A stretch of 33,945 bases of DNA from Patescibacteria group bacterium (lineage in GTDB: Bacteria; Patescibacteriota; Patescibacteriia; DYHP01): positions 1 through 33,945 of the forward strand of contig JAYEKT010000064.1 in the NCBI GenBank assembly GCA_034716735.1. Direction: 5' to 3'. Below, piece by piece: positions 26,429 through 33,945 of the stretch. Below the pieces are notes generated by a model that had not been told where the DNA came from, did not search any database, and saw nothing but the letters and a program-made list of their open reading frames with translations. Every line of letters begins with the position of its first letter. The stretch's first letter is position 1. Position numbers and translations under genes: made by a program.

Positions 26429-26451
26429 TATTTTAGCTTTGAACCCTCAAA

Positions 26452-26523
26452 GCGGGCGTCGTATAACGGCTATTATACATCCTTGCCAAGGATGAGACGG
26501 CGGTTCGATTCCGCTCGCCCGCT
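26452..26523 (+). tRNA. tRNA-Gly (anticodon GCC), no CCA encoded
   Basis: Acceptor GCGGGCG/CGCCCGC, anticodon stem CATCC/GGATG with loop TTGCCAA, T arm GGCGG-TTCGATT-CCGCT, U73. Confidence 0.9.
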
Positions 26524-26595
26524 TTGAGGGTTTTAAGATATTCAAAAACCCCCGCCTACCCTGTCATCCTCTGGTTTATCCAGTGGATCCACAAA

Positions 26596-26618
26596 AACAC
26601 GCCAGGGGGTGGCGTGTT
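26596..26618. terminator. GC-rich hairpin between tRNA-Gly and hsdM
   Basis: AACACGCCA-GGGGG-TGGCGTGTT. The T-run is only on the minus-strand side. Confidence 0.4.
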
Positions 26619-26691
26619 TAGAGAATTGCAAAAATTAAGAAAATGTGGGAGAATGGAGGTAGAAATTAAAATTTTTTAAGCATAGAAAATT

Positions 26692-28269
26692 ATGACAACT
26701 GAACAAAAAAAGACATTAGAGCGTCAATTGTGGAAAGTAGCCGACACGCTTCGCGGTAAAATGAACGCAGATGAATATAAAAATTACATTCTTGGCTTCA
26801 TTTTTTACAAATATCTTTCCGAAAAATTAGAACGCTATGTCAATGAAAAGCTTCTTGTGCGGGAAGATTTTAAATTTGCAGAAATTAAAGAAAGTACAAA
26901 AGAGGGTAAATTAACTTTGGAAGAGGTAAGAAAAGCGTGCGTCGGACACCTCGGTTTTTTCTTAAAACCAAAAGAATTATTTTCTTATCTTGTTAAAAAA
27001 GGCAAGGGGGAAATAAAAAATCAAGAAGATTTTATTTTAGAAGATCTAAAAAGTGTTTTAGATACCATTGAACAAACATCTAAAAACACAGCAAGTGAAG
27101 ATGATTTTAAGGGTCTTTTTGATGATGTAGATTTAACATCTTCAAAACTTGGTTCTCGCGAAAATCAAAAAAATGAAACAATTATTGAAATTTTTAAACT
27201 TCTAAGTGAAATAGATTTTAAATTAGAAGATTCAAAAAGCGATTTACTTGGTGATGCTTATGAATATCTTATTGGAGAATTTGCCGCAGGCGCTGGTAAA
27301 AAAGGTGGTGAGTTTTATACCCCCGCACAAGTATCACGCTTGTTGGCTCAAATTGTAACAGAAGATAAAAAGAAAATTTGCTCAGTTTACGATCCAACCT
27401 GTGGTTCGGGTTCGCTTTTGCTTCGTATAGGTGACTTTGTTGATGTTGGCAATTACTTTGGGCAAGAACTTAATCGAACAACCTATAACCTCGCGCGTAT
27501 GAATATGATATTGCACGGCGTTAATTTTAATGACTTTAATATTCAACAAGGAGATACTTTAGTGGAAGACGCGCATCCAGATTTAAGAGCAGAGGCAATA
27601 GTTGCCAATCCTCCTTTTGCCGCAAAATGGAAAAGCGATAGTGATCCACAGTTAGCGCAAGATGAAAGATTTTCTCAATATGGAAGATTAGCGCCAAAAG
27701 GCGCGGCAGATTATGCTTTTGTAACACATATGATTTATCACTTGGCTGATAATGGAACAATGGCTGTTGTTTTACCGCATGGCGTATTGTTCAGAGGAGG
27801 CGCAGAAGGGCAGATAAGAAAATATATTATAGAAAGTCAAAATTATTTAGATGCGGTTATCGGGTTTCCTGCAAATATTTTTTATGGAACTTCTATTCCA
27901 GTAACCGTTCTGGTATTTAAAAAATGTCGTAAAGATGATGAGGATATTTTATTTATTGACGCGTCAAAAGAGTTTGAAAAAGGAAGAAATCAAAATCACC
28001 TGACTGATGAAAATCTTACAAAAATTTTTGAAACTTATGAAAAGCGTAAAGAGATAGAAAAATATTCTCATAAAGCAAGCTTGGAAGAAATTAAAGAAAA
28101 TGATTATAACTTAAACATTCCGCGCTATGTAGATACTTTTGAAGAAGAAGAGGAAATAGATATTGATAAAGTCGCGAAAGAGTTGAGAGGATTTCAGTCA
28201 AAAGAGAAAGAGATAGAGAAAAGAATCACAAAATATTGTAAGGAGTTGAAGATAGATAAGCCGTTTTAG
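26692..28269 (+). CDS. hsdM: Type I restriction-modification system, N6-adenine methyltransferase subunit
   Basis: HsdM N-terminal domain 'LWKVADTLRGKMNADEYKNYILGFIFYKYLS', motif I 'DPTCGSGSLL', motif IV 'VANPPFAAKW'. Confidence 0.92.
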   Translation: MTTEQKKTLERQLWKVADTLRGKMNADEYKNYILGFIFYKYLSEKLERYVNEKLLVREDFKFAEIKESTKEGKLTLEEVRKACVGHLGFFLKPKELFSYLVKKGKGEIKNQEDFILEDLKSVLDTIEQTSKNTASEDDFKGLFDDVDLTSSKLGSRENQKNETIIEIFKLLSEIDFKLEDSKSDLLGDAYEYLIGEFAAGAGKKGGEFYTPAQVSRLLAQIVTEDKKKICSVYDPTCGSGSLLLRIGDFVDVGNYFGQELNRTTYNLARMNMILHGVNFNDFNIQQGDTLVEDAHPDLRAEAIVANPPFAAKWKSDSDPQLAQDERFSQYGRLAPKGAADYAFVTHMIYHLADNGTMAVVLPHGVLFRGGAEGQIRKYIIESQNYLDAVIGFPANIFYGTSIPVTVLVFKKCRKDDEDILFIDASKEFEKGRNQNHLTDENLTKIFETYEKRKEIEKYSHKASLEEIKENDYNLNIPRYVDTFEEEEEIDIDKVAKELRGFQSKEKEIEKRITKYCKELKIDKPF

Positions 28270-28289
28270 AGTAGTAAATTGTTAAAATT

Positions 28290-29240
28290 ATGCAAGAAGA
28301 CAAAAATAATCAAATAATCATCTATAAAGCTGAAGACGGTAAGACAAAAATTGAAGTTCAGGTAAAAGATGAAACTGTTTGGCTTTCGCAAAAGCAAATG
28401 GCAGAGCTTTTTGATTGCTCTGTGGATAATGTAGGGCTTCATTTAAAGAATATTTATTTTGAAGGAGAATTAGTGGAAAATTTAACTTCCGAGGATTCCT
28501 CGGTAGTTCAAATAGAGGGCGGACGGAGTGTGAATAGACCGATTAAATCTTACAATCTAGATGCAATTATTTCCGTTGGGTATAGGGTTAATTCCTTGCG
28601 TGGTACACAGTTTCGTATTTGGGCAACTCAAAAATTGCGCGATTACATTATTAAGGGTTTTGCTATGGACGACGAACGATTGGCTGAAGGTCGGGTAGAA
28701 AAAACATATTTTGAAGAATGGGAAGATCGGATTAGAAAAATTAGAACTTCGGAAGCTAATTTTTATCAAAAAGTAAAAGACGTTTTTGCTACTAGCGCGG
28801 ATTATGATTCGAGATCAGATTACGCTAAGCAATTTTTTTCAGTAGTACAAAATAAATTTCATTTTGCTATAACTGGCTTAACTGCAGCAGAAATTGTTTC
28901 CAGTCGTGTAAGTAGTAGCAAGGATAATTTAGGATTAACGAATTGGAAGGGTGAGATCATCACACGCGATCAAGCACAGGTTGCAAAGAATTATTTAGAA
29001 GAGCTGGAACTTAAAAGATTAAATTTATTAGTAGAGCAATTTTTATCTTTTGCAGAACTGCAAAGTATAGAAAAGAGAGTGATGTATATGAGGGATTGGA
29101 TTAAAAAATTAGATGGTTTTTTAGTTTTAAATGACAAAAAGATTTTACAGAATGCGGGTAATATTTCGCATGTAAAAATGGAAAAGAAGGTTAGGGAGGA
29201 ACTAAAGAAATATAATGAGAATATTAAAGAATTAAAATAA
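28290..29240 (+). CDS. rhuM: RhuM-family protein
   Basis: 'IIIYKAEDGKTKIEVQVKDETVWLSQKQMAELF', 'ISVGYRVNSLRGTQFRIWATQKLRDYIIKGFAMDDERL' are characteristic RhuM motifs. The hsdM-rhuM-hsdS arrangement is common. Confidence 0.8.
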   Translation: MQEDKNNQIIIYKAEDGKTKIEVQVKDETVWLSQKQMAELFDCSVDNVGLHLKNIYFEGELVENLTSEDSSVVQIEGGRSVNRPIKSYNLDAIISVGYRVNSLRGTQFRIWATQKLRDYIIKGFAMDDERLAEGRVEKTYFEEWEDRIRKIRTSEANFYQKVKDVFATSADYDSRSDYAKQFFSVVQNKFHFAITGLTAAEIVSSRVSSSKDNLGLTNWKGEIITRDQAQVAKNYLEELELKRLNLLVEQFLSFAELQSIEKRVMYMRDWIKKLDGFLVLNDKKILQNAGNISHVKMEKKVREELKKYNENIKELK

Positions 29241-29266
29241 AAAAGTTACTATATTTTTTAAATAAA

Positions 29267-30553
29267 ATGCCAGCCAAAAACAAAAAATCAAAAAATAAAA
29301 AAATCCCGAAACTTCGTTTTCCGGAGTTTTCTGGTGCGTGGGAGGAGAGGAGGTTGGGGGAGGTGGGGGATATTATTACAGGTACGACTCCACCAACAGC
29401 AGAACGCGATTTTTATGGAGACGAGTTTATGTTTATATCACCAGCAGATATCGGAAACAAACGTTATATCAGAGATACAAAAAACAAATTAAGCAAATTG
29501 GGTTTTGGCTATGGAAGGGGGGTTAGAAAAAATGCAACGTTGTTTGTGTGTATTGGTTCAACTATAGGAAAAGTCGCACAAGCTGATAGAGATTGTTCGA
29601 CAAATCAACAAATTAATTCAATAGAATCAAATAAAAATAATTTAGATGATTTTATTTTTTATAGGTTGTTAAATGATTCAAAGAAAATTAAATTGTTAGC
29701 AGGTACTCAAGCTGTTCCACAATTAAATAAAACTCAATTTTCTAGTTTAAAATTTTGTTTTCCTATATTGAAGGAACAACAAAAAATCGCTGGGTTTTTG
29801 GGAGGGGTAGATGAGTGGATTGAAAATCTTCGCGCGGAAAAGGAAAAAATGGAAGAATATAAAAAAGGAATGATGCAAAAGATTTTTGACTTCTCTTGTC
29901 ATTCCCGCGCAGGCGGGAATCCAGAAAATTGCATCCGTTTCAAAGACGACAACGGTAAAAATTTTCCAGATTGGGAGGAGAAGGGGTTGGGGGAAATAAA
30001 AGTATTCGTATCTGATGGAAATTATGGGGAGATGTATCCAAAGGCGAGTGAAATGAAAGATACTGGAGTTCCCTTTATTCGTGCAAACAATATAAAAGAT
30101 CTCAAAGTGGTTTGGGATGATATGAAATATATAGGTAGTGATTTACATAAAATGCTACAAAGTGGCCATTTAAAAAAAGGTGATATTTTAGTTACAACAA
30201 GGGGTGAAATTGGTATGCTTGCCTATGTAGATGAAGAATTTGACGATGCCAATATCAACGCGCAAATTTGTTTATTAAGGTGCGGTAATGATATTTTGCC
30301 AAGATTTTTATTAAATTATTTATCATCGCGAATTGGGCAAAAACAATTTAAGGAATTACAGACCGGTTCAGCATTAAAACAATTACCAAAAGGGAATCTA
30401 TCAAAGATAAAAATTAATCTTCCATCACTTCCAGAACAGCAAAAAATCGCAGAATTTTTGACTTCCTTAGATAATCTGATAGAATTAAAAGAAAAACAAA
30501 TAACCCAAGCAGAGGAGTGGAAAAAGGGCTTAATGCAGGGGTTGTTTGTGTAA
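29267..30553 (+). CDS. hsdS: Type I R-M specificity subunit (two TRDs)
   Basis: 'PKLRFPEFSGAWEERRLGEV' and 'DWEEKGLGEI' TRD starts. Conserved helices 'LKEQQKIAGFL...KKGMMQKIF' and 'LPEQQKIAEFL...KKGLMQGLFV'. Confidence 0.9.
   Translation: MPAKNKKSKNKKIPKLRFPEFSGAWEERRLGEVGDIITGTTPPTAERDFYGDEFMFISPADIGNKRYIRDTKNKLSKLGFGYGRGVRKNATLFVCIGSTIGKVAQADRDCSTNQQINSIESNKNNLDDFIFYRLLNDSKKIKLLAGTQAVPQLNKTQFSSLKFCFPILKEQQKIAGFLGGVDEWIENLRAEKEKMEEYKKGMMQKIFDFSCHSRAGGNPENCIRFKDDNGKNFPDWEEKGLGEIKVFVSDGNYGEMYPKASEMKDTGVPFIRANNIKDLKVVWDDMKYIGSDLHKMLQSGHLKKGDILVTTRGEIGMLAYVDEEFDDANINAQICLLRCGNDILPRFLLNYLSSRIGQKQFKELQTGSALKQLPKGNLSKIKINLPSLPEQQKIAEFLTSLDNLIELKEKQITQAEEWKKGLMQGLFV
29891..29932 (+). repeat. in-frame copy of the GTCATTCC-YGC...GCR-GGAATCC palindromic element inside hsdS
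   Basis: TTCTCTTGTCATTCCCGC-GCAG-GCGGGAATCCAGAAAATTGC encodes FSCHSRAGGNPENC. It sits between the central conserved helix and the 'IRFKDDNG' start of TRD2. Confidence 0.65.
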
Positions 30554-30559
30554 TAATTT

Positions 30560-31198
30560 ATGAATAAGACCAGAAGGTTAATTGATGATAAAAGAAGTGA
30601 TTTTCCGGAATTTCAATATTACCATAATATTTTAGATAAAATAGAAGAGAATGTTAAAAAGATGCCAGATATTGCCATTGAAAGTTGCAAATCTTTAATA
30701 GAAGGAGTTTCTAAAACAATTTTAAAAAAATTAAAGATAGATTTTAAAGAAAATGGTAGAGGCACTGATCAGTCAAGGGAGTTATTAAACAAAGTTTTAG
30801 ATAATATTCCTAGTGCAATACCGCATGATCCAGAATTTATTAATAGAACTTGTGGACTCGTTTGTAGAATGACAGAAATAAGAAATAAAAGAGGTGATGT
30901 TTCTCATGGTAAAGTATCGCCAAAGGAGGAAGATAGTGATGTTAGGTTAGCACAATTTATTGCCGAAGTTACGGATAGTATAGTCTACTATGTACTGGAA
31001 ACTTTCTTTGTCGCAGACCTATCTTCCTTTGAAGAGGCTAAGTATGAAGACAACGAAGAATTTAATCAATTTTTAGATAGCGAAAATGAATTAGATGGAA
31101 TATCTTATAGCGAAGCATTGTTTTATCAAGATCCGGCCTCCTATGAAGAACAATTAAAAAATTATTTAGCAGAAAAAGAGGAGGGAGAAAGTAACTAA
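30560..31198 (+). CDS. Abi_C-like (abortive-infection C-terminal domain) protein
   Basis: 'AIESCKSLIEGVSKTILKKL' ... 'MTEIRNKRGDVSHGK' matches my recollection of the Abi_C pattern (helix ... [LI]RN..G..HG), followed by an acidic tail. Confidence 0.55.
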   Translation: MNKTRRLIDDKRSDFPEFQYYHNILDKIEENVKKMPDIAIESCKSLIEGVSKTILKKLKIDFKENGRGTDQSRELLNKVLDNIPSAIPHDPEFINRTCGLVCRMTEIRNKRGDVSHGKVSPKEEDSDVRLAQFIAEVTDSIVYYVLETFFVADLSSFEEAKYEDNEEFNQFLDSENELDGISYSEALFYQDPASYEEQLKNYLAEKEEGESN

Positions 31199-31201
31199 AA
31201 T

Positions 31202-31257
31202 AAATAACCCAAGCCGAGCAATGGAAAAAAGGTTTGATGTAGGGGTTGTTTGTGTAA
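31202..31257 (+). pseudogene. remnant of an hsdS 3' end (56 nt, 49/56 identical to 30498-30553) with an in-frame stop
   Basis: Hand alignment. It reads ITQAEQWKKGLM*GLFV*, compared with the hsdS C-terminus ITQAEEWKKGLMQGLFV*. Confidence 0.8.
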
Positions 31258-31259
31258 AC

Positions 31260-31347
31260 TTGCAATTTTTTTAGAGTGTGTTATAATAAAATTATTAACA
31301 CAACACTTTAAGATAAAGTTGCAATTTTTTTTAATATAGATTATAAT
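31260..31347 (+). promoter_or_regulatory. two tandem promoters upstream of higB, plus an imperfect palindrome
   Basis: P1 is TTGCAA (31260), 16 nt, TATAAT (31282). P2 is TTGCAA (31319), 17 nt, TATAAT (31342), ending 4 nt before the ATG. GTGTGTTATAAT-AAA-ATTATTAACACAAC overlaps the P1 -10. Confidence 0.5.
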
Positions 31348-31351
31348 AGAT

Positions 31352-31657
31352 ATGGAGATATCATTTAGAGATAACAAAATAAAAAAACAGGTAGCAAAAA
31401 AAGTGAGGTCTAATAATATCGCCAATAGACGATTGACGCAATTAAAAAATGCTATTTGTTTTACAGATATACCAGCCAGCGCAAAAGCGCATTTTTTACA
31501 AGGTAATTTAAAAAATTGTTTTGCGGTGGATTTTGATTATCCAGCAAGATTAATTTGTGAACCTGCTGAAGAATTTAGAAAGGATGGTAATGGACAGTTC
31601 ATTAAAGAAAGTATTACTGCTTTAGAGATTTTAGAGATTAAAAAAGATTATCATTAA
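31352..31657 (+). CDS. higB: HigB-like (RelE/ParE superfamily 'killer protein') toxin
   Basis: The N-terminus 'MEISFRDNKIKK', the 'HFLQGNLKNCFAV' segment and the C-terminus '...ILEIKKDYH' parallel the HigB/killer-protein family (MIKSF..., H.LKGD..G.WS, ...DYH). Confidence 0.6.
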   Translation: MEISFRDNKIKKQVAKKVRSNNIANRRLTQLKNAICFTDIPASAKAHFLQGNLKNCFAVDFDYPARLICEPAEEFRKDGNGQFIKESITALEILEIKKDYH

Positions 31658-31680
31658 AAAAATAATTAATCTATAAGAAT

Positions 31681-32862
31681 ATGACTACAAAAAATCAAAA
31701 ATCGTATATAGAAAACAAAAAGAAACAGGGTCTTTATGGTGTTGATTTTTTGACGGCTGAACATCCTGGAGCAACATTGCAGGACGAATTAGATTTTTTT
31801 GGTTTAACCCAAAAAGCTTTAGCTGAAAAGATTGGCTACACTGCTCAAACAGTTAATAGGATTATAAAAGGAGTAGAACCCATAACTACAGACATAGCTT
31901 TGGCATTAGAAAGAGTTTTTGATGGAAGCCCCTCTGTTCAATTTTGGTTGAATATGCAGTCTGAATACGATCAAGAAATTTCTAAAGTAAAAGAGCTCGA
32001 AGAAACAGAAGAAGTTCAATTTTTTAAAGACAACGTTAAGGCTACCTTTAAAGAATTGCAAAAAGGTCATATATTTGAAAACTATCTTTTAAATACAAGA
32101 ATAAATTGCAAAAAAGCAATTATTGATATTAAAAATTTTTTTGGTTCTTATTCTTTACGGTCAATCCCAGATGAAGCTTTCCTTGGAGTTGCTTTTAGAA
32201 AGGGGGGCAAAAAAGATATAAGTGAATACAATTTGGCGGCAATTTTAAAGATTGGAGACAGAAAGGCTAAAGCTATATTAAAGGACGGTGGTATTTCCAG
32301 ATATAATAAAATAAATTTTTTAAAATTATTGCCGAAGTTGAAAAAAATATCAAATGAAACGCAAAAAGATTTTTTAAGATTATTACAAGAAGAGTGTTTG
32401 AAGGTGGGTGTCATTGTGGTATATGTGCCTAATATGACGAATACTGTTTTTGGTGGGGCGACCATGAGAATTGCCAATCATCCAGTGATTTTGCTTAAAG
32501 TTGAAAATCAGCGGGAAGATATTTTTTGGTTTAATTTTTACCACGAAGCTGGGCATATTGTTAAACATAGTAAGAAGAAAGTTTTTATTGACTTTGATGA
32601 AGACGGACAAAAAAATGAGTTTGAGATAGATGCAAATGAATTCGCTTCAAGTATATTATATTCAGATTTTGATGAAATTAAGAATAAAATAGAAAAAAAC
32701 GCACCACTTGATATTAGAATTAAAAAGATTTCTCAAATAGTTGGTATCTCAAAAAGTATAGTGGCTGGTAAAATATGCAATTTAGTAGGTTGTTCAGAAG
32801 CTTGGAAGATACTAAGTAAGTATAGACCAACAATAAAGGAAAAAATTGGATTTATAAAATAA
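31681..32862 (+). CDS. HigA-type HTH antitoxin domain fused to an ImmA/IrrE (COG2856) metallopeptidase domain
   Basis: N-terminus 'HPGATLQDELDFFGLTQKALAEKIGYTAQTVNRIIKGVEPITTDIALALERVF' is a HigA-family HTH. C-terminus 'FNFYHEAGHIVKH...EIDANEFASSIL' has the HExxH zinc motif of ImmA/IrrE. Confidence 0.75.
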   Translation: MTTKNQKSYIENKKKQGLYGVDFLTAEHPGATLQDELDFFGLTQKALAEKIGYTAQTVNRIIKGVEPITTDIALALERVFDGSPSVQFWLNMQSEYDQEISKVKELEETEEVQFFKDNVKATFKELQKGHIFENYLLNTRINCKKAIIDIKNFFGSYSLRSIPDEAFLGVAFRKGGKKDISEYNLAAILKIGDRKAKAILKDGGISRYNKINFLKLLPKLKKISNETQKDFLRLLQEECLKVGVIVVYVPNMTNTVFGGATMRIANHPVILLKVENQREDIFWFNFYHEAGHIVKHSKKKVFIDFDEDGQKNEFEIDANEFASSILYSDFDEIKNKIEKNAPLDIRIKKISQIVGISKSIVAGKICNLVGCSEAWKILSKYRPTIKEKIGFIK

Positions 32863-32872
32863 TAATGAAATT

Positions 32873-33304
32873 ATGACAAAAGAATATAAATATCCAGATC
32901 CAGAGTATATTAGGATTAACGAAGCAGACTTAAAGCTTCATTTAATAAATTTTGCAAAAGCAAATAAAAGTAAAATTACTATAAGGGATTTGATTATTTT
33001 AATCCCAGCGTGGGCAGTACTTTTTACTGCTGACTTTAAGTTATTATTTGGTTTAGATCCAGTTATAATTAAGTCCTTATATGCTGGTTTACTTATATTT
33101 GGTACAGCAATTTATTTTAATCAATTTTTTTGGTCGTTAAGACGTTTATATAATTGGCTAAAAGATAAAATATTTTTTAACTCAAAAAAGAAAAAAAATA
33201 TAATTTTATCGGAATATTGTGAAAATACAGCGTTCATCGCTGATCCAACAAAAAAAGTGGAGTCCGTAAAGGAAATATCTAGGTTATACAAATTGAAGAA
33301 ATGA
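32873..33304 (+). CDS. small membrane protein (2 predicted TM helices), unknown function
   Basis: Hydrophobic stretches 'LIILIPAWAVLFTADFKLLF' and 'LYAGLLIFGTAIYFNQFFW'. Lys-rich tail. Confidence 0.6.
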   Translation: MTKEYKYPDPEYIRINEADLKLHLINFAKANKSKITIRDLIILIPAWAVLFTADFKLLFGLDPVIIKSLYAGLLIFGTAIYFNQFFWSLRRLYNWLKDKIFFNSKKKKNIILSEYCENTAFIADPTKKVESVKEISRLYKLKK

Positions 33305-33390
33305 AAAAATTAGCGCTACGCCATGATGGTTTAAATGCGTACATTAATCGCCACAAGCATTGGTATTCAGAAAAAAAGATAAATATATGA
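33301..33390 (+). CDS. possible 29-codon coupling ORF (MKKLALRHDGLNAYINRHKHWYSEKKINI)
   Basis: ATGA overlap with the preceding stop (33301-33304) and ATGA overlap with the hsdR start (33387-33390). Confidence 0.3.
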   Translation: MKKLALRHDGLNAYINRHKHWYSEKKINI

Positions 33391-33945
33391 CCCACCAATC
33401 CGAACAAAAACTCGAAAATACCTTAATAAAACAGCTGAATAGGCTGGGGTTTTCGAGTATCGTAATCCAGGACGACAAAGAGCTTATTAAAAACCTTAAA
33501 AAGCAGTTAGAAAAATTTAATCAGATAAAATTTTCCGACAAAGAGTTTGCAAAAATTTTAAATCACTTGAAAAAAGGCGACAGATTTCACAAGGCAAAAA
33601 CCTTGCGTGATAGGTTTTTATTTAAAGGAGATGACGGGAAAGATAGGTATATTAGATTTTTCAACATGGACAAGTGGTGCAAGAATGAATATCAGGTGGC
33701 GCAACAAATTACTCAAAAGGGCCATTATGAAAATAGGTATGATGTAACCCTTCTTGTAAACGGGCTTCCGCTTGTTCAAATTGAACTAAAACGCAGAGGA
33801 ATGGAAATGAAAGAAGCTTTTAATCAAATTCAGCGGTACCATAAACACTCTTTTACTGGAACACTTTTTGAATATGCTCAAATTTTTGTAATTTCAAACG
33901 GGGTTAATACAAAATACTTTTCAAATAATCCAAAACAAACTTTTG
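33387..33945 (+). CDS. hsdR: Type I R-M restriction subunit, N-terminal part (continues beyond window)
   Basis: Hand translation: MTHQSEQKLENTLIKQLNRLGF...RYDVTLLVNGLPLVQIELKRRG...FNQIQRY. This is the PD-(D/E)xK nuclease core typical of the HsdR N-terminus. The frame is open to the window end. Confidence 0.85.
   Translation, partial: MTHQSEQKLENTLIKQLNRLGFSSIVIQDDKELIKNLKKQLEKFNQIKFSDKEFAKILNHLKKGDRFHKAKTLRDRFLFKGDDGKDRYIRFFNMDKWCKNEYQVAQQITQKGHYENRYDVTLLVNGLPLVQIELKRRGMEMKEAFNQIQRYHKHSFTGTLFEYAQIFVISNGVNTKYFSNNPKQTF

Follow-up and report, generated by a model that had tools for sequence, protein, structure and literature searches.

Type I restriction–modification (R–M) loci are described as hosts of other defence genes. 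PrrC is encoded within the type IC locus EcoprrI (PMC12707154), DarTG2 lies between hsdS and hsdR in enteropathogenic Escherichia coli (EPEC), at a site called a likely recombination hotspot (PMC12255303), and TgvAB is embedded in the Vibrio cholerae VPI-2 type I cluster (PMC11411939). Using guilt-by-embedding, Payne et al. (2024; 10.1101/2024.01.29.577857) counted 17,432 non-redundant genes that lie inside BREX, DISARM and type I R–M systems. In PD-lambda-2 (Vassallo et al. 2022; PMC9519451), the B component is toxic on its own and is neutralised by A, and defence also requires a third gene with a P4-antitoxin-like product. Here we analyse an hsd operon at the end of a 33,945-nt stretch of DNA (the window), which is the entire contig JAYEKT010000064.1 (C64) of a metagenome-assembled genome (MAG) of an ultra-small Patescibacteria group bacterium (GCA_034716735.1; 871 kb, 124 contigs, estimated completeness 92%). 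We consider it probable that this locus is an hsdM-hsdS-hsdR type IC-like R–M operon that holds three independent, co-directional defence cassettes at two junctions.

Gene identities were derived from a listing of open reading frames (ORFs) together with Pfam and PADLOC scans (Table 1). From position 26692 to the end of the window, all sizeable ORFs are on the + strand. The operon spans 9,494 bp in total, compared with ~5.5–5.7 kb in cargo-free relatives, and its intergenic gaps are 6–26 nt except at two places, the promoter region (153 nt) and the stretch in front of hsdR (82 nt). No Shine–Dalgarno sequence was found at any gene start here. HsdM contains the N6-adenine methyltransferase domain and the HsdM N-terminal domain, and HsdS has two target-recognition domains (TRDs) and the conserved helices. 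The contig end cuts hsdR, which starts at ATG 33387 (MTHQSEQ; M[TSP]HQSEQ is conserved among relatives). Its reading frame is carried on by contig C123 (L003:1-2367), and the joined product has 932 aa, the usual length in relatives. The joined HsdR has HSDR_N, SWI2_SNF2/ResIII, T1R_D3-like and EcoR124_C domains, i.e. a nuclease N-domain, a superfamily 2 (SF2) motor, a helical domain and an EcoR124-type C-terminus; it is predicted to be an intact type IC-like enzyme, and the join rests on an overlap of 127 nt (window 33819-33945 = L003 (C123) 1-127). A search of the assembly for a second hsd system or hsdR copy that could explain the contig break found none, and hsdR is single; strain variation in the population is a possible cause of the break inside hsdR. 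Contigs C64, C123 and C102 are all chained by 127-nt overlaps, with the end of C123 overlapping C102.

Table 1. Features of the hsd locus and their positions in the window (all coordinates refer to the forward strand of contig C64).
Feature	Position	Strand	Evidence or remark
Putative promoter-like site 5′ of hsdM	26626..26654	+	TTGCAA, 17-nt spacer, GAGAAT
hsdM, type I methyltransferase subunit, 525 aa	26692..28269	+	N6_Mtase PF02384 4e-112; HsdM_N PF12161 3.5e-22; PADLOC MTase_I 3e-168
RhuM-family passenger, 316 aa, hsdM–hsdS slot	28290..29240	+	PF13310 5e-97; PADLOC candidate defence family PDC-S05 1e-127
hsdS, specificity subunit, 428 aa, two TRDs	29267..30553	+	PF01420 8e-52, two stretches; PADLOC Specificity_I 6e-80, full length
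Abi_C/HEPN-type passenger, 212 aa, first cassette in hsdS–hsdR slot	30560..31198	+	PF14355 2.5e-5; PADLOC AbiJ 6e-6
Scar: last ~56 nt of hsdS with in-frame TAG	31202..31257	+	reads QAEQWKKGLM(stop)GLFV(stop); left end of HigB/HigA-M78 cassette
Tandemly duplicated promoter-like region, two TTGCAA...TATAAT copies 59–60 nt apart	31260..31347	+	promoter scan
HigB-like RelE-fold protein, 101 aa	31352..31657	+	PF05015 matches in family, HigB profile match, AlphaFold2 (AF2) fold
HigA-type helix-turn-helix (HTH) fused to ImmA/IrrE (M78) metallopeptidase, 393 aa	31681..32862	+	HTH_3 PF01381 9.5e-10; Peptidase_M78 PF06114 7.5e-6
Small membrane protein, two hydrophobic segments (2-TM protein), 143 aa	32873..33304	+	hydropathy, segments ~35–61 and 57–82
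29-codon ORF	33301..33390	+	ATG overlaps 2-TM stop, TGA overlaps hsdR ATG (ATGA at both ends)
hsdR, 5′ part, 186 codons	33387..33945	+	PF04313 7e-41; PADLOC REase_I 5.5e-65, model position 1 at ATG

A preliminary description, made from the letters of the window alone, had listed these genes in this order, and the ORF listing, the Pfam and PADLOC scans and structure matches bear out its identities. Its labels 'higB-like' and 'HigA-HTH::ImmA/IrrE fusion' proved right by family profile, AF2 folds and an invariant HExxH motif. It had also counted six passengers in more than 7 kb; the operon is indeed stretched, but five of these are credible passenger genes and the sixth, the 29-codon ORF, is without a counterpart. 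Likewise, the hsdS remnant that it listed among the genes does derive from the 3′ end of hsdS but is a non-coding scar without an ORF. Its assignment of hsdR to this operon, and not to a separate system, holds, with this being the only hsdR in the assembly and having the lineage's conserved start and length.

Relatives were sampled as 80 loci, one genome per species, with hsdM 59–80% identical to the one described here, and hsdM, hsdS and hsdR were mapped in each by script; the nearest relative (G009), obtained through a genome search, was added to this set. The named homologues stem from Patescibacteria MAGs. Operon statistics refer to the 58 complete related hsd operons, cargo families are BLAST clusters, and cargo was typed by Pfam and PADLOC tallies. 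The hsdS–hsdR slot is occupied in 44 of the 58 operons and the hsdM–hsdS slot in 26, always with the other slot also filled; the remaining 14 operons are empty and have hsdS–hsdR spacings of -86 to +54 nt. Nearly all cargo ORFs (112/114) are co-directional, and the 114 ORFs fall into 87 clusters. The main families are DUF3800, AbiL/AriA/PtuA-like ATPases, Shedu SduA, Fic/SoFic and Schlafen-AlbA_2, together with Abi_C, reverse transcriptases, RhuM, KAP NTPase and SocA_Panacea. Filled slots, mostly with recognised defence families, are in agreement with the earlier view of hsd loci as landing pads.

Our locus ranks sixth of the 58 by cargo length. Genes for the HigB-like, HigA-M78 and 2-TM proteins were not found as cargo in any of the other 57 operons, so the set is not repeated, and even in G009, the closest relative (76% identity in hsdM), the first slot is taken by a Schlafen/AlbA_2 gene and the second by two genes of no recognised family. 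The locus is thus an ordinary member of its lineage, with a cargo combination that is not conserved. In a quick tree of hsdM, slot occupancy changes state at least 16 times, and the tree intermixes many Patescibacteria candidate phyla, from which it follows that the operon itself is mobile. Near-identical operons also occur in several MAGs titled Gammaproteobacteria or Pseudomonadales; the mixed titles and phyla suggest that the operon has been transferred horizontally on a wide scale, that bins are mislabelled, or both.

Between the Abi_C gene and the HigB-like gene lies a scar that matches the end of hsdS. It shares 89–94% identity with true hsdS tails in the relatives L042 and L030 and, by the figure in the preliminary description, agrees with the resident hsdS tail at 49/56 positions (87.5%). 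The same remnant precedes a homologous HigB-like/HigA-M78 pair in three loci (L005–L007) where there is no hsd operon; in these (L005:7225-7315, L006 and L007) the pair follows a penicillin-binding-protein gene, with the hsdS-tail remnant upstream of its promoter. These cassettes were probably exported from an hsd operon, or outlived one. In L103, the pair has an hsdS tail 129 nt in front of it. Since the scar accompanies the pair elsewhere, it is assigned to the left end of that cassette, which would normally reside directly behind hsdS. Insertion of Abi_C with the remnant as a target duplication was considered and rejected as the sole explanation, because the remnant is nearer to the tails of other alleles than to that of the resident and accompanies the cassette in other genomes.

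Six relatives have similar fragments, from an hsdS tail, an hsdR head, an hsdM tail or an hsdS head, precisely at the borders between cargo genes: L021 (G009:C27), L025, L031, L036, L042 and L064, the last with a third cargo gene that starts with ~20 nt of hsdR head. No such hsd-end fragments were found in single-cargo slots; they occur in slots with two or more cargo genes. Together, the scars between cargo modules, here and in these six relatives, support piecewise stacking by recombination at the ends of hsd genes. In such a process, cassettes would be stacked one by one through recombination at conserved hsd gene ends, and the scar at 31202-31257 would be the seam between the Abi_C and HigB/HigA-M78 cassettes. 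The present hsdS and Abi_C may have joined later, in front of the scar-bearing cassette; in the alternative order, the cassette would have joined behind Abi_C, using hsdR homology on its other side.

The last cassette contains the HigB-like/HigA-M78 pair. The 101-aa protein has no direct Pfam match, and 28 of the 57 members of its family (alignment A3) match PF05015 (HigB-like_toxin); a profile of the family finds Proteus vulgaris HigB (4mct, 5.5e-6). Its AF2 model (pLDDT 94.7) matches YoeB, RelE, YafQ and HigB in Foldseek (probability 1.00, TM-score ~0.6), and H47, R66 and the C-terminal H101 (DYH end) are invariant in the family. When the protein and 56 relatives were compared with the PADLOC models, including PD-Lambda-2_A, none matched. 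In the 393-aa protein, the N-terminal domain of the AF2 model superposes on HigA (TM-score 0.75–0.85, 39–43% identity), the C-terminal domain resembles CapP (7t5t), PprI (8sln) and IrrE (3dti), and HExxH (H288, E289, H292) is invariant across 24 homologues. PADLOC matches are to PD-Lambda-2_B (PDLC03982, 6.7e-23; residues 117-366 against model positions 133-374 of 402), RmrA (7e-10) and capP (5e-6). A RelE-fold HigB with H47, R66 and H101, followed by a HigA HTH, corresponds to HigBA with a putative toxin; compared with canonical HigBA, the antitoxin here has a 290-residue extension with the M78 peptidase.

Wherever the HTH-M78 gene occurs, a member of the ~100–120-aa family of the 101-aa protein precedes it nearly everywhere, and the pair is conserved as a two-gene unit in ~90 loci with mixed neighbours, of which ~10 adjoin or sit inside hsd operons. 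Close homologues (41–69% identity) in other Patescibacteria always have the ~100-aa gene in front and occupy unrelated genomic sites: behind the penicillin-binding-protein gene, near an insertion sequence (IS) element and a PIN_12 gene, and near a PvuII-type R–M system. The pair is again just upstream of hsdR in L103, where the third gene is different and HEPN-like, and just upstream of hsdS in L109 and L113. Nearly all of 80 more distant metagenomic loci have the pair; in ~10 of them hsd genes lie within four genes, and in some of these the pair separates hsdM from hsdS. From locus to locus, the next co-directional genes are unrelated (hsdS, methyltransferases, DruA, PIN, integrase and others), and 30 of the 73 evaluable loci have no co-directional gene within 300 nt after the pair. 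The genes trailing close homologues encode differing effector-like proteins. Third genes include a 189-aa protein with an RNKIAH HEPN-like motif and a weak HEPN_MAE_28990 match (L103:1817-2386), a 157-aa protein with an HEIIH motif (L102:9700-10173) and a PIN_12 protein (L008:5578-6579).

Upstream of the pair, the promoter scan returned 10/12 matches for each of two sites, at 31260-31287 and 31319-31347. An operator-like dyad, TGTTATAATAA/TTATTAACACA, is present at 31279-31302, with direct repeats D1/D2 and an inverted repeat, I5. A -35 element (TTGCAA/TTGTAA), an extended -10 and the palindrome TTATTAACA...TGTTAATAA are conserved upstream of the pair in six loci (this one and five others). 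We infer that the duplicated region would be the cassette's own autoregulated promoter. An ORF of 29 aa at 31250-31339 was rejected as a gene and regarded as a chance frame over the promoter region. Together, these comparisons indicate a widespread, self-contained, portable cassette with what appear to be its own promoter and operator-like dyad, and with a predicted function.

The other two cassettes are single genes. In the hsdM–hsdS slot, the RhuM protein is a full-length family member (PF13310 profile positions 4–249 of 252; PDC-S05 1.4e-127), and RhuM homologues are also hsd cargo in L024, L036 and L071. A further RhuM-like fragment was seen at a contig edge elsewhere in the assembly (G000:C68:3-311), with 44% identity to residues 209–311. 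Behind hsdS, the 212-aa protein has a HEPN-type Rx4H motif (R111-x4-H116, RGDVSH) that is conserved with its homologue in L043, where that gene is the sole cargo between hsdS and hsdR. It shares with AbiJ and other Abi_C HEPN proteins the C-terminal Abi_C (HEPN) domain and its Rx4H motif. Compared with AbiJ, only the C-terminal half aligns (model positions 141–248 of 281), the Pfam score is borderline and the N-terminal AbiJ domain is absent; AbiJ proper was therefore rejected in favour of an Abi_C/HEPN protein, a putative RNase-type abortive-infection effector.

Two further reading frames follow the pair. The 2-TM protein had no match in Pfam or PADLOC, except for a weak one to the PADLOC CBASS 2TM effector (E 0.024). 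A word-based search for homologues returned the query alone, and a full HMMER search found 40 distant homologues of 117–230 aa. They have in common a YKYPDPDxIxINEADL motif at the N-terminal end, two hydrophobic helices and, C-terminally, DPxxKVxxIK. Searches of 400 sampled genomes of the phylum, all fetched loci, viral contigs and plasmids did not find the family. The 2-TM protein is real and belongs to a rare, uncharacterised family. Given the heterogeneous downstream neighbours listed above, conservation does not tie it to the pair, and it may be the effector of the pair or a further passenger. For the 29-codon ORF and the 82-nt gap before hsdR, no counterpart or homologue was found in any fetched locus, nor was an hsdR-head scar. 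The chance of such a 29-codon bridging frame is roughly estimated at ~0.01, and its overlaps make translational coupling through it to hsdR possible.

At the 5′ side, the island is bounded by a tRNA-Gly gene (26451-26524, tRNA call), which together with a hairpin at 26597-26617 precedes the promoter-like site of hsdM; that site is below the threshold of the promoter scanner and was read from the sequence. A small winged helix-turn-helix (wHTH) gene and opposite-strand housekeeping genes form the downstream boundary. This gene encodes a 104-aa winged-helix protein (L003:2505-2819, C123), is co-directional and lies ~140 nt 3′ of hsdR, before the housekeeping genes; it may be part of the island. 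In hsdS, a 42-nt palindromic genome repeat at 29891-29932 is in frame and adds 14 residues (FSCHSRAGGNPENC) between the central helix and TRD2. The repeat, GTCATTCCCGCG-N-AGGCGGGAATCC, has 14 copies in the assembly, 13 of them outside hsdS (e.g. C111:9225, C111:9276 and C123:6423), and its core, TCCCGC-N4-GCGGGA, occurs 14 times in the assembly.

No convincing + strand terminator was found between the genes, including from the pair to hsdR. In addition, the genes of the empty operons are packed so closely that a promoter of hsdR's own would not fit; expression of hsdR therefore probably relies on read-through of the cargo, started at the hsdM promoter, the cassette promoter or both. Such read-through would explain why cargo is almost always co-directional; hsdR is probably co-transcribed with the last cassette, which may couple the two passively. 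Our working model infers what the components do, what triggers them, how the locus is transcribed and what the 2-TM protein is for; in it, each layer most likely works by itself. The R–M complex would cleave unmethylated DNA, with the HEPN protein and the HigB/HigA-M78 module as abortive-infection or TA-type back-ups. Upon an infection signal, the M78 peptidase would probably inactivate the HigA-type repressor/antitoxin domain.

Several points weigh against reading the locus as an R–M operon with three independent defence cassettes. HsdS carries the repeat-derived insertion of 14 residues; hsdR is joined over a contig break, and a strain variant could hide in the 127-nt overlap; and the Abi_C match to PF14355 scores 24.7 bits, barely exceeding the Pfam cut-off of 24. 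The PADLOC PD-Lambda-2_A and _C models match nothing here and no member of the A family. By analogy with PD-lambda-2, in which B is toxic and A neutralises (PMC9519451), the canonical logic of HigB toxin and HigA antitoxin may fail in this pair. The first two points would also fit a partly decayed locus that has lost restriction, through an hsdS disabled by the 42-nt repeat inserted at the junction of central helix and TRD2, or through an hsdR truly broken at the contig end, where the assembly breaks. We regard such decay as very unlikely, since every reading frame is open, the joined hsdR has exactly the usual length of the lineage and all domains, and the insertion in hsdS is in frame and at a linker. 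A specific partnership with the R–M enzyme is quite unlikely as well. Here, at least one passenger, most plausibly Abi_C/HEPN or RhuM, would be a PrrC-type guardian that is silenced by the type I enzyme and freed by a phage anti-restriction protein. There is precedent in PrrC, which resides in a type IC locus (PMC12707154), and HsdR here is type IC-like with EcoR124_C; both detected copies of the Abi_C subfamily stand immediately after hsdS, and RhuM homologues are hsd cargo in three relatives. However, the passengers have no homology to PrrC or RloC (which combine an ABC-ATPase-like N-domain with a C-terminal anticodon nuclease domain, and whose Pfam and PADLOC models none of them matches), the Abi_C subfamily provides two observations only, and the dozens of unrelated families in the same slots argue for a permissive site over a specific partnership.

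The remaining alternatives concern regulation. The preliminary description had proposed that the nested set may function as one regulated unit, and a single co-adapted, jointly regulated, multi-layer system would be compatible with all genes being on one strand, with short gaps and no terminator-like sites between them. This proposal finds no support in the comparison with relatives, and we give it a very small chance: the set is unique among the 58 related operons, each module is found separately elsewhere, and the hsdS-tail scar and internal promoter between modules indicate separate acquisitions. In a narrower form, the HigB-like/HigA-M78 pair would be a transcriptional switch for the genes downstream, as in CapH/CapP or the C-protein control of restriction genes. 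HigA would repress the cassette promoter, and on infection or DNA damage M78 would destroy the repressor, inducing the 2-TM gene and hsdR together. The operator-like palindrome, which lies across or right beside the -10 element and is conserved along with the pair, is consistent with such a switch, as are the lack of a + strand terminator-like site from the pair to hsdR, the spacing of 10 nt before the 2-TM gene followed by ATGA overlaps through the micro-ORF to hsdR, the resemblance of the M78 domain to CapP and IrrE/PprI, and the placement of the pair just 5′ of hsdR in L103 and of hsdS in L109 and L113. Nevertheless, we think it unlikely, because the pair so often lacks a close co-directional follower (30 of 73 loci) and elsewhere precedes unrelated families, because PD-lambda-2 acts as a TA-like abortive-infection system (PMC9519451), and because hsdR can be reached from the hsdM promoter too. 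The same doubt applies to a fuller proposal, in which the HigA-M78 repressor-protease would gate hsdR and the 2-TM gene, both chained to the cassette by ATGA overlaps where gene starts lack Shine–Dalgarno sequences, by autorepression at the dyad, relieved when the peptidase destroys its own HTH on infection, and in which the hsd-end scars would mark a mechanism of cassette exchange. If true, an embedded TA-like module would double as a restriction controller, a protease-triggered analogue of C-protein control, and the type IC lineage would be an integron-like collector of defence genes across Patescibacteria.

Returning to the pair as an independent cassette, its closest described counterpart is PD-lambda-2, which likewise has a HigB-like first gene, a HigA/Xre HTH-M78 fusion and a co-directional third gene. 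The B components are homologous. The candidate A component corresponds by architecture and has the HigB/RelE fold and a family link to PF05015; PADLOC PD-Lambda-2_A matches no family member. In contrast to PD-lambda-2, component C has no equivalent: the third gene here encodes the 2-TM protein, not a P4-antitoxin-like one, and the third gene is unconserved among homologues. By architecture and by B, the pair appears to be a PD-lambda-2 relative, not a demonstrated member. RosmerTA (RmrT/RmrA), of the Xre-COG2856 class, is similar in its HTH and ImmA/IrrE Zn-peptidase and its variable partner genes, whereas here the RmrA models (best 7e-10) cover only the peptidase core (residues ~240–347), the RelE-fold partner lies upstream, and no RmrT model matches the HigB-like or 2-TM protein. 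The CapH/CapP, ImmR/ImmA and DdrO/IrrE switches likewise have a peptidase of the M78 fold, a repressor of the HTH type and a promoter with a palindromic operator; in contrast, here the repressor and protease form one chain with a HigB-like partner, there is no CBASS or SOS-type regulon, and cleavage and its signal are predictions. With its conserved operator-like palindrome, the portable HigB-like/HigA-M78 cassette offers a tractable model for the unexplained mechanism of PD-lambda-2.

At the level of the whole locus, no new principle is involved, as the embedding of defence genes in type I R–M loci is already documented by experiment (PrrC, DarTG2 and TgvAB) and in large surveys. Modest additions are the scars, the slot-occupancy figures and the portable cassette. 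The locus provides a well-resolved example in a genome-reduced, uncultured lineage that devotes ~1% of a 0.87-Mb genome to a single layered defence operon. Three quarters of the complete operons in this widely transferred type IC-like lineage carry cargo, and the near-total co-direction fits a need to transcribe hsdR through it. The locus resembles the embedded-defence loci described so far (PrrC, DarTG2, TgvAB and those of Payne et al.) in its same-strand passengers between hsd genes, the hotspot between hsdS and hsdR, its TA-like and Abi-like cargo and a type IC-like HsdR. It differs in that there is no PrrC, DarTG or GmrSD homologue, and no RptR-like regulator upstream; a tRNA-Gly gene is directly upstream of hsdM instead. 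It also differs in its host, a Patescibacteria member with a 0.87-Mb genome, and in having three cassettes stacked in two slots. Finally, the hsdS-tail and hsdR-head leftovers between modules form a concrete footprint of how such stacks are built and, in contrast to the loci described so far, hsd-end scars here reveal the order of accretion.

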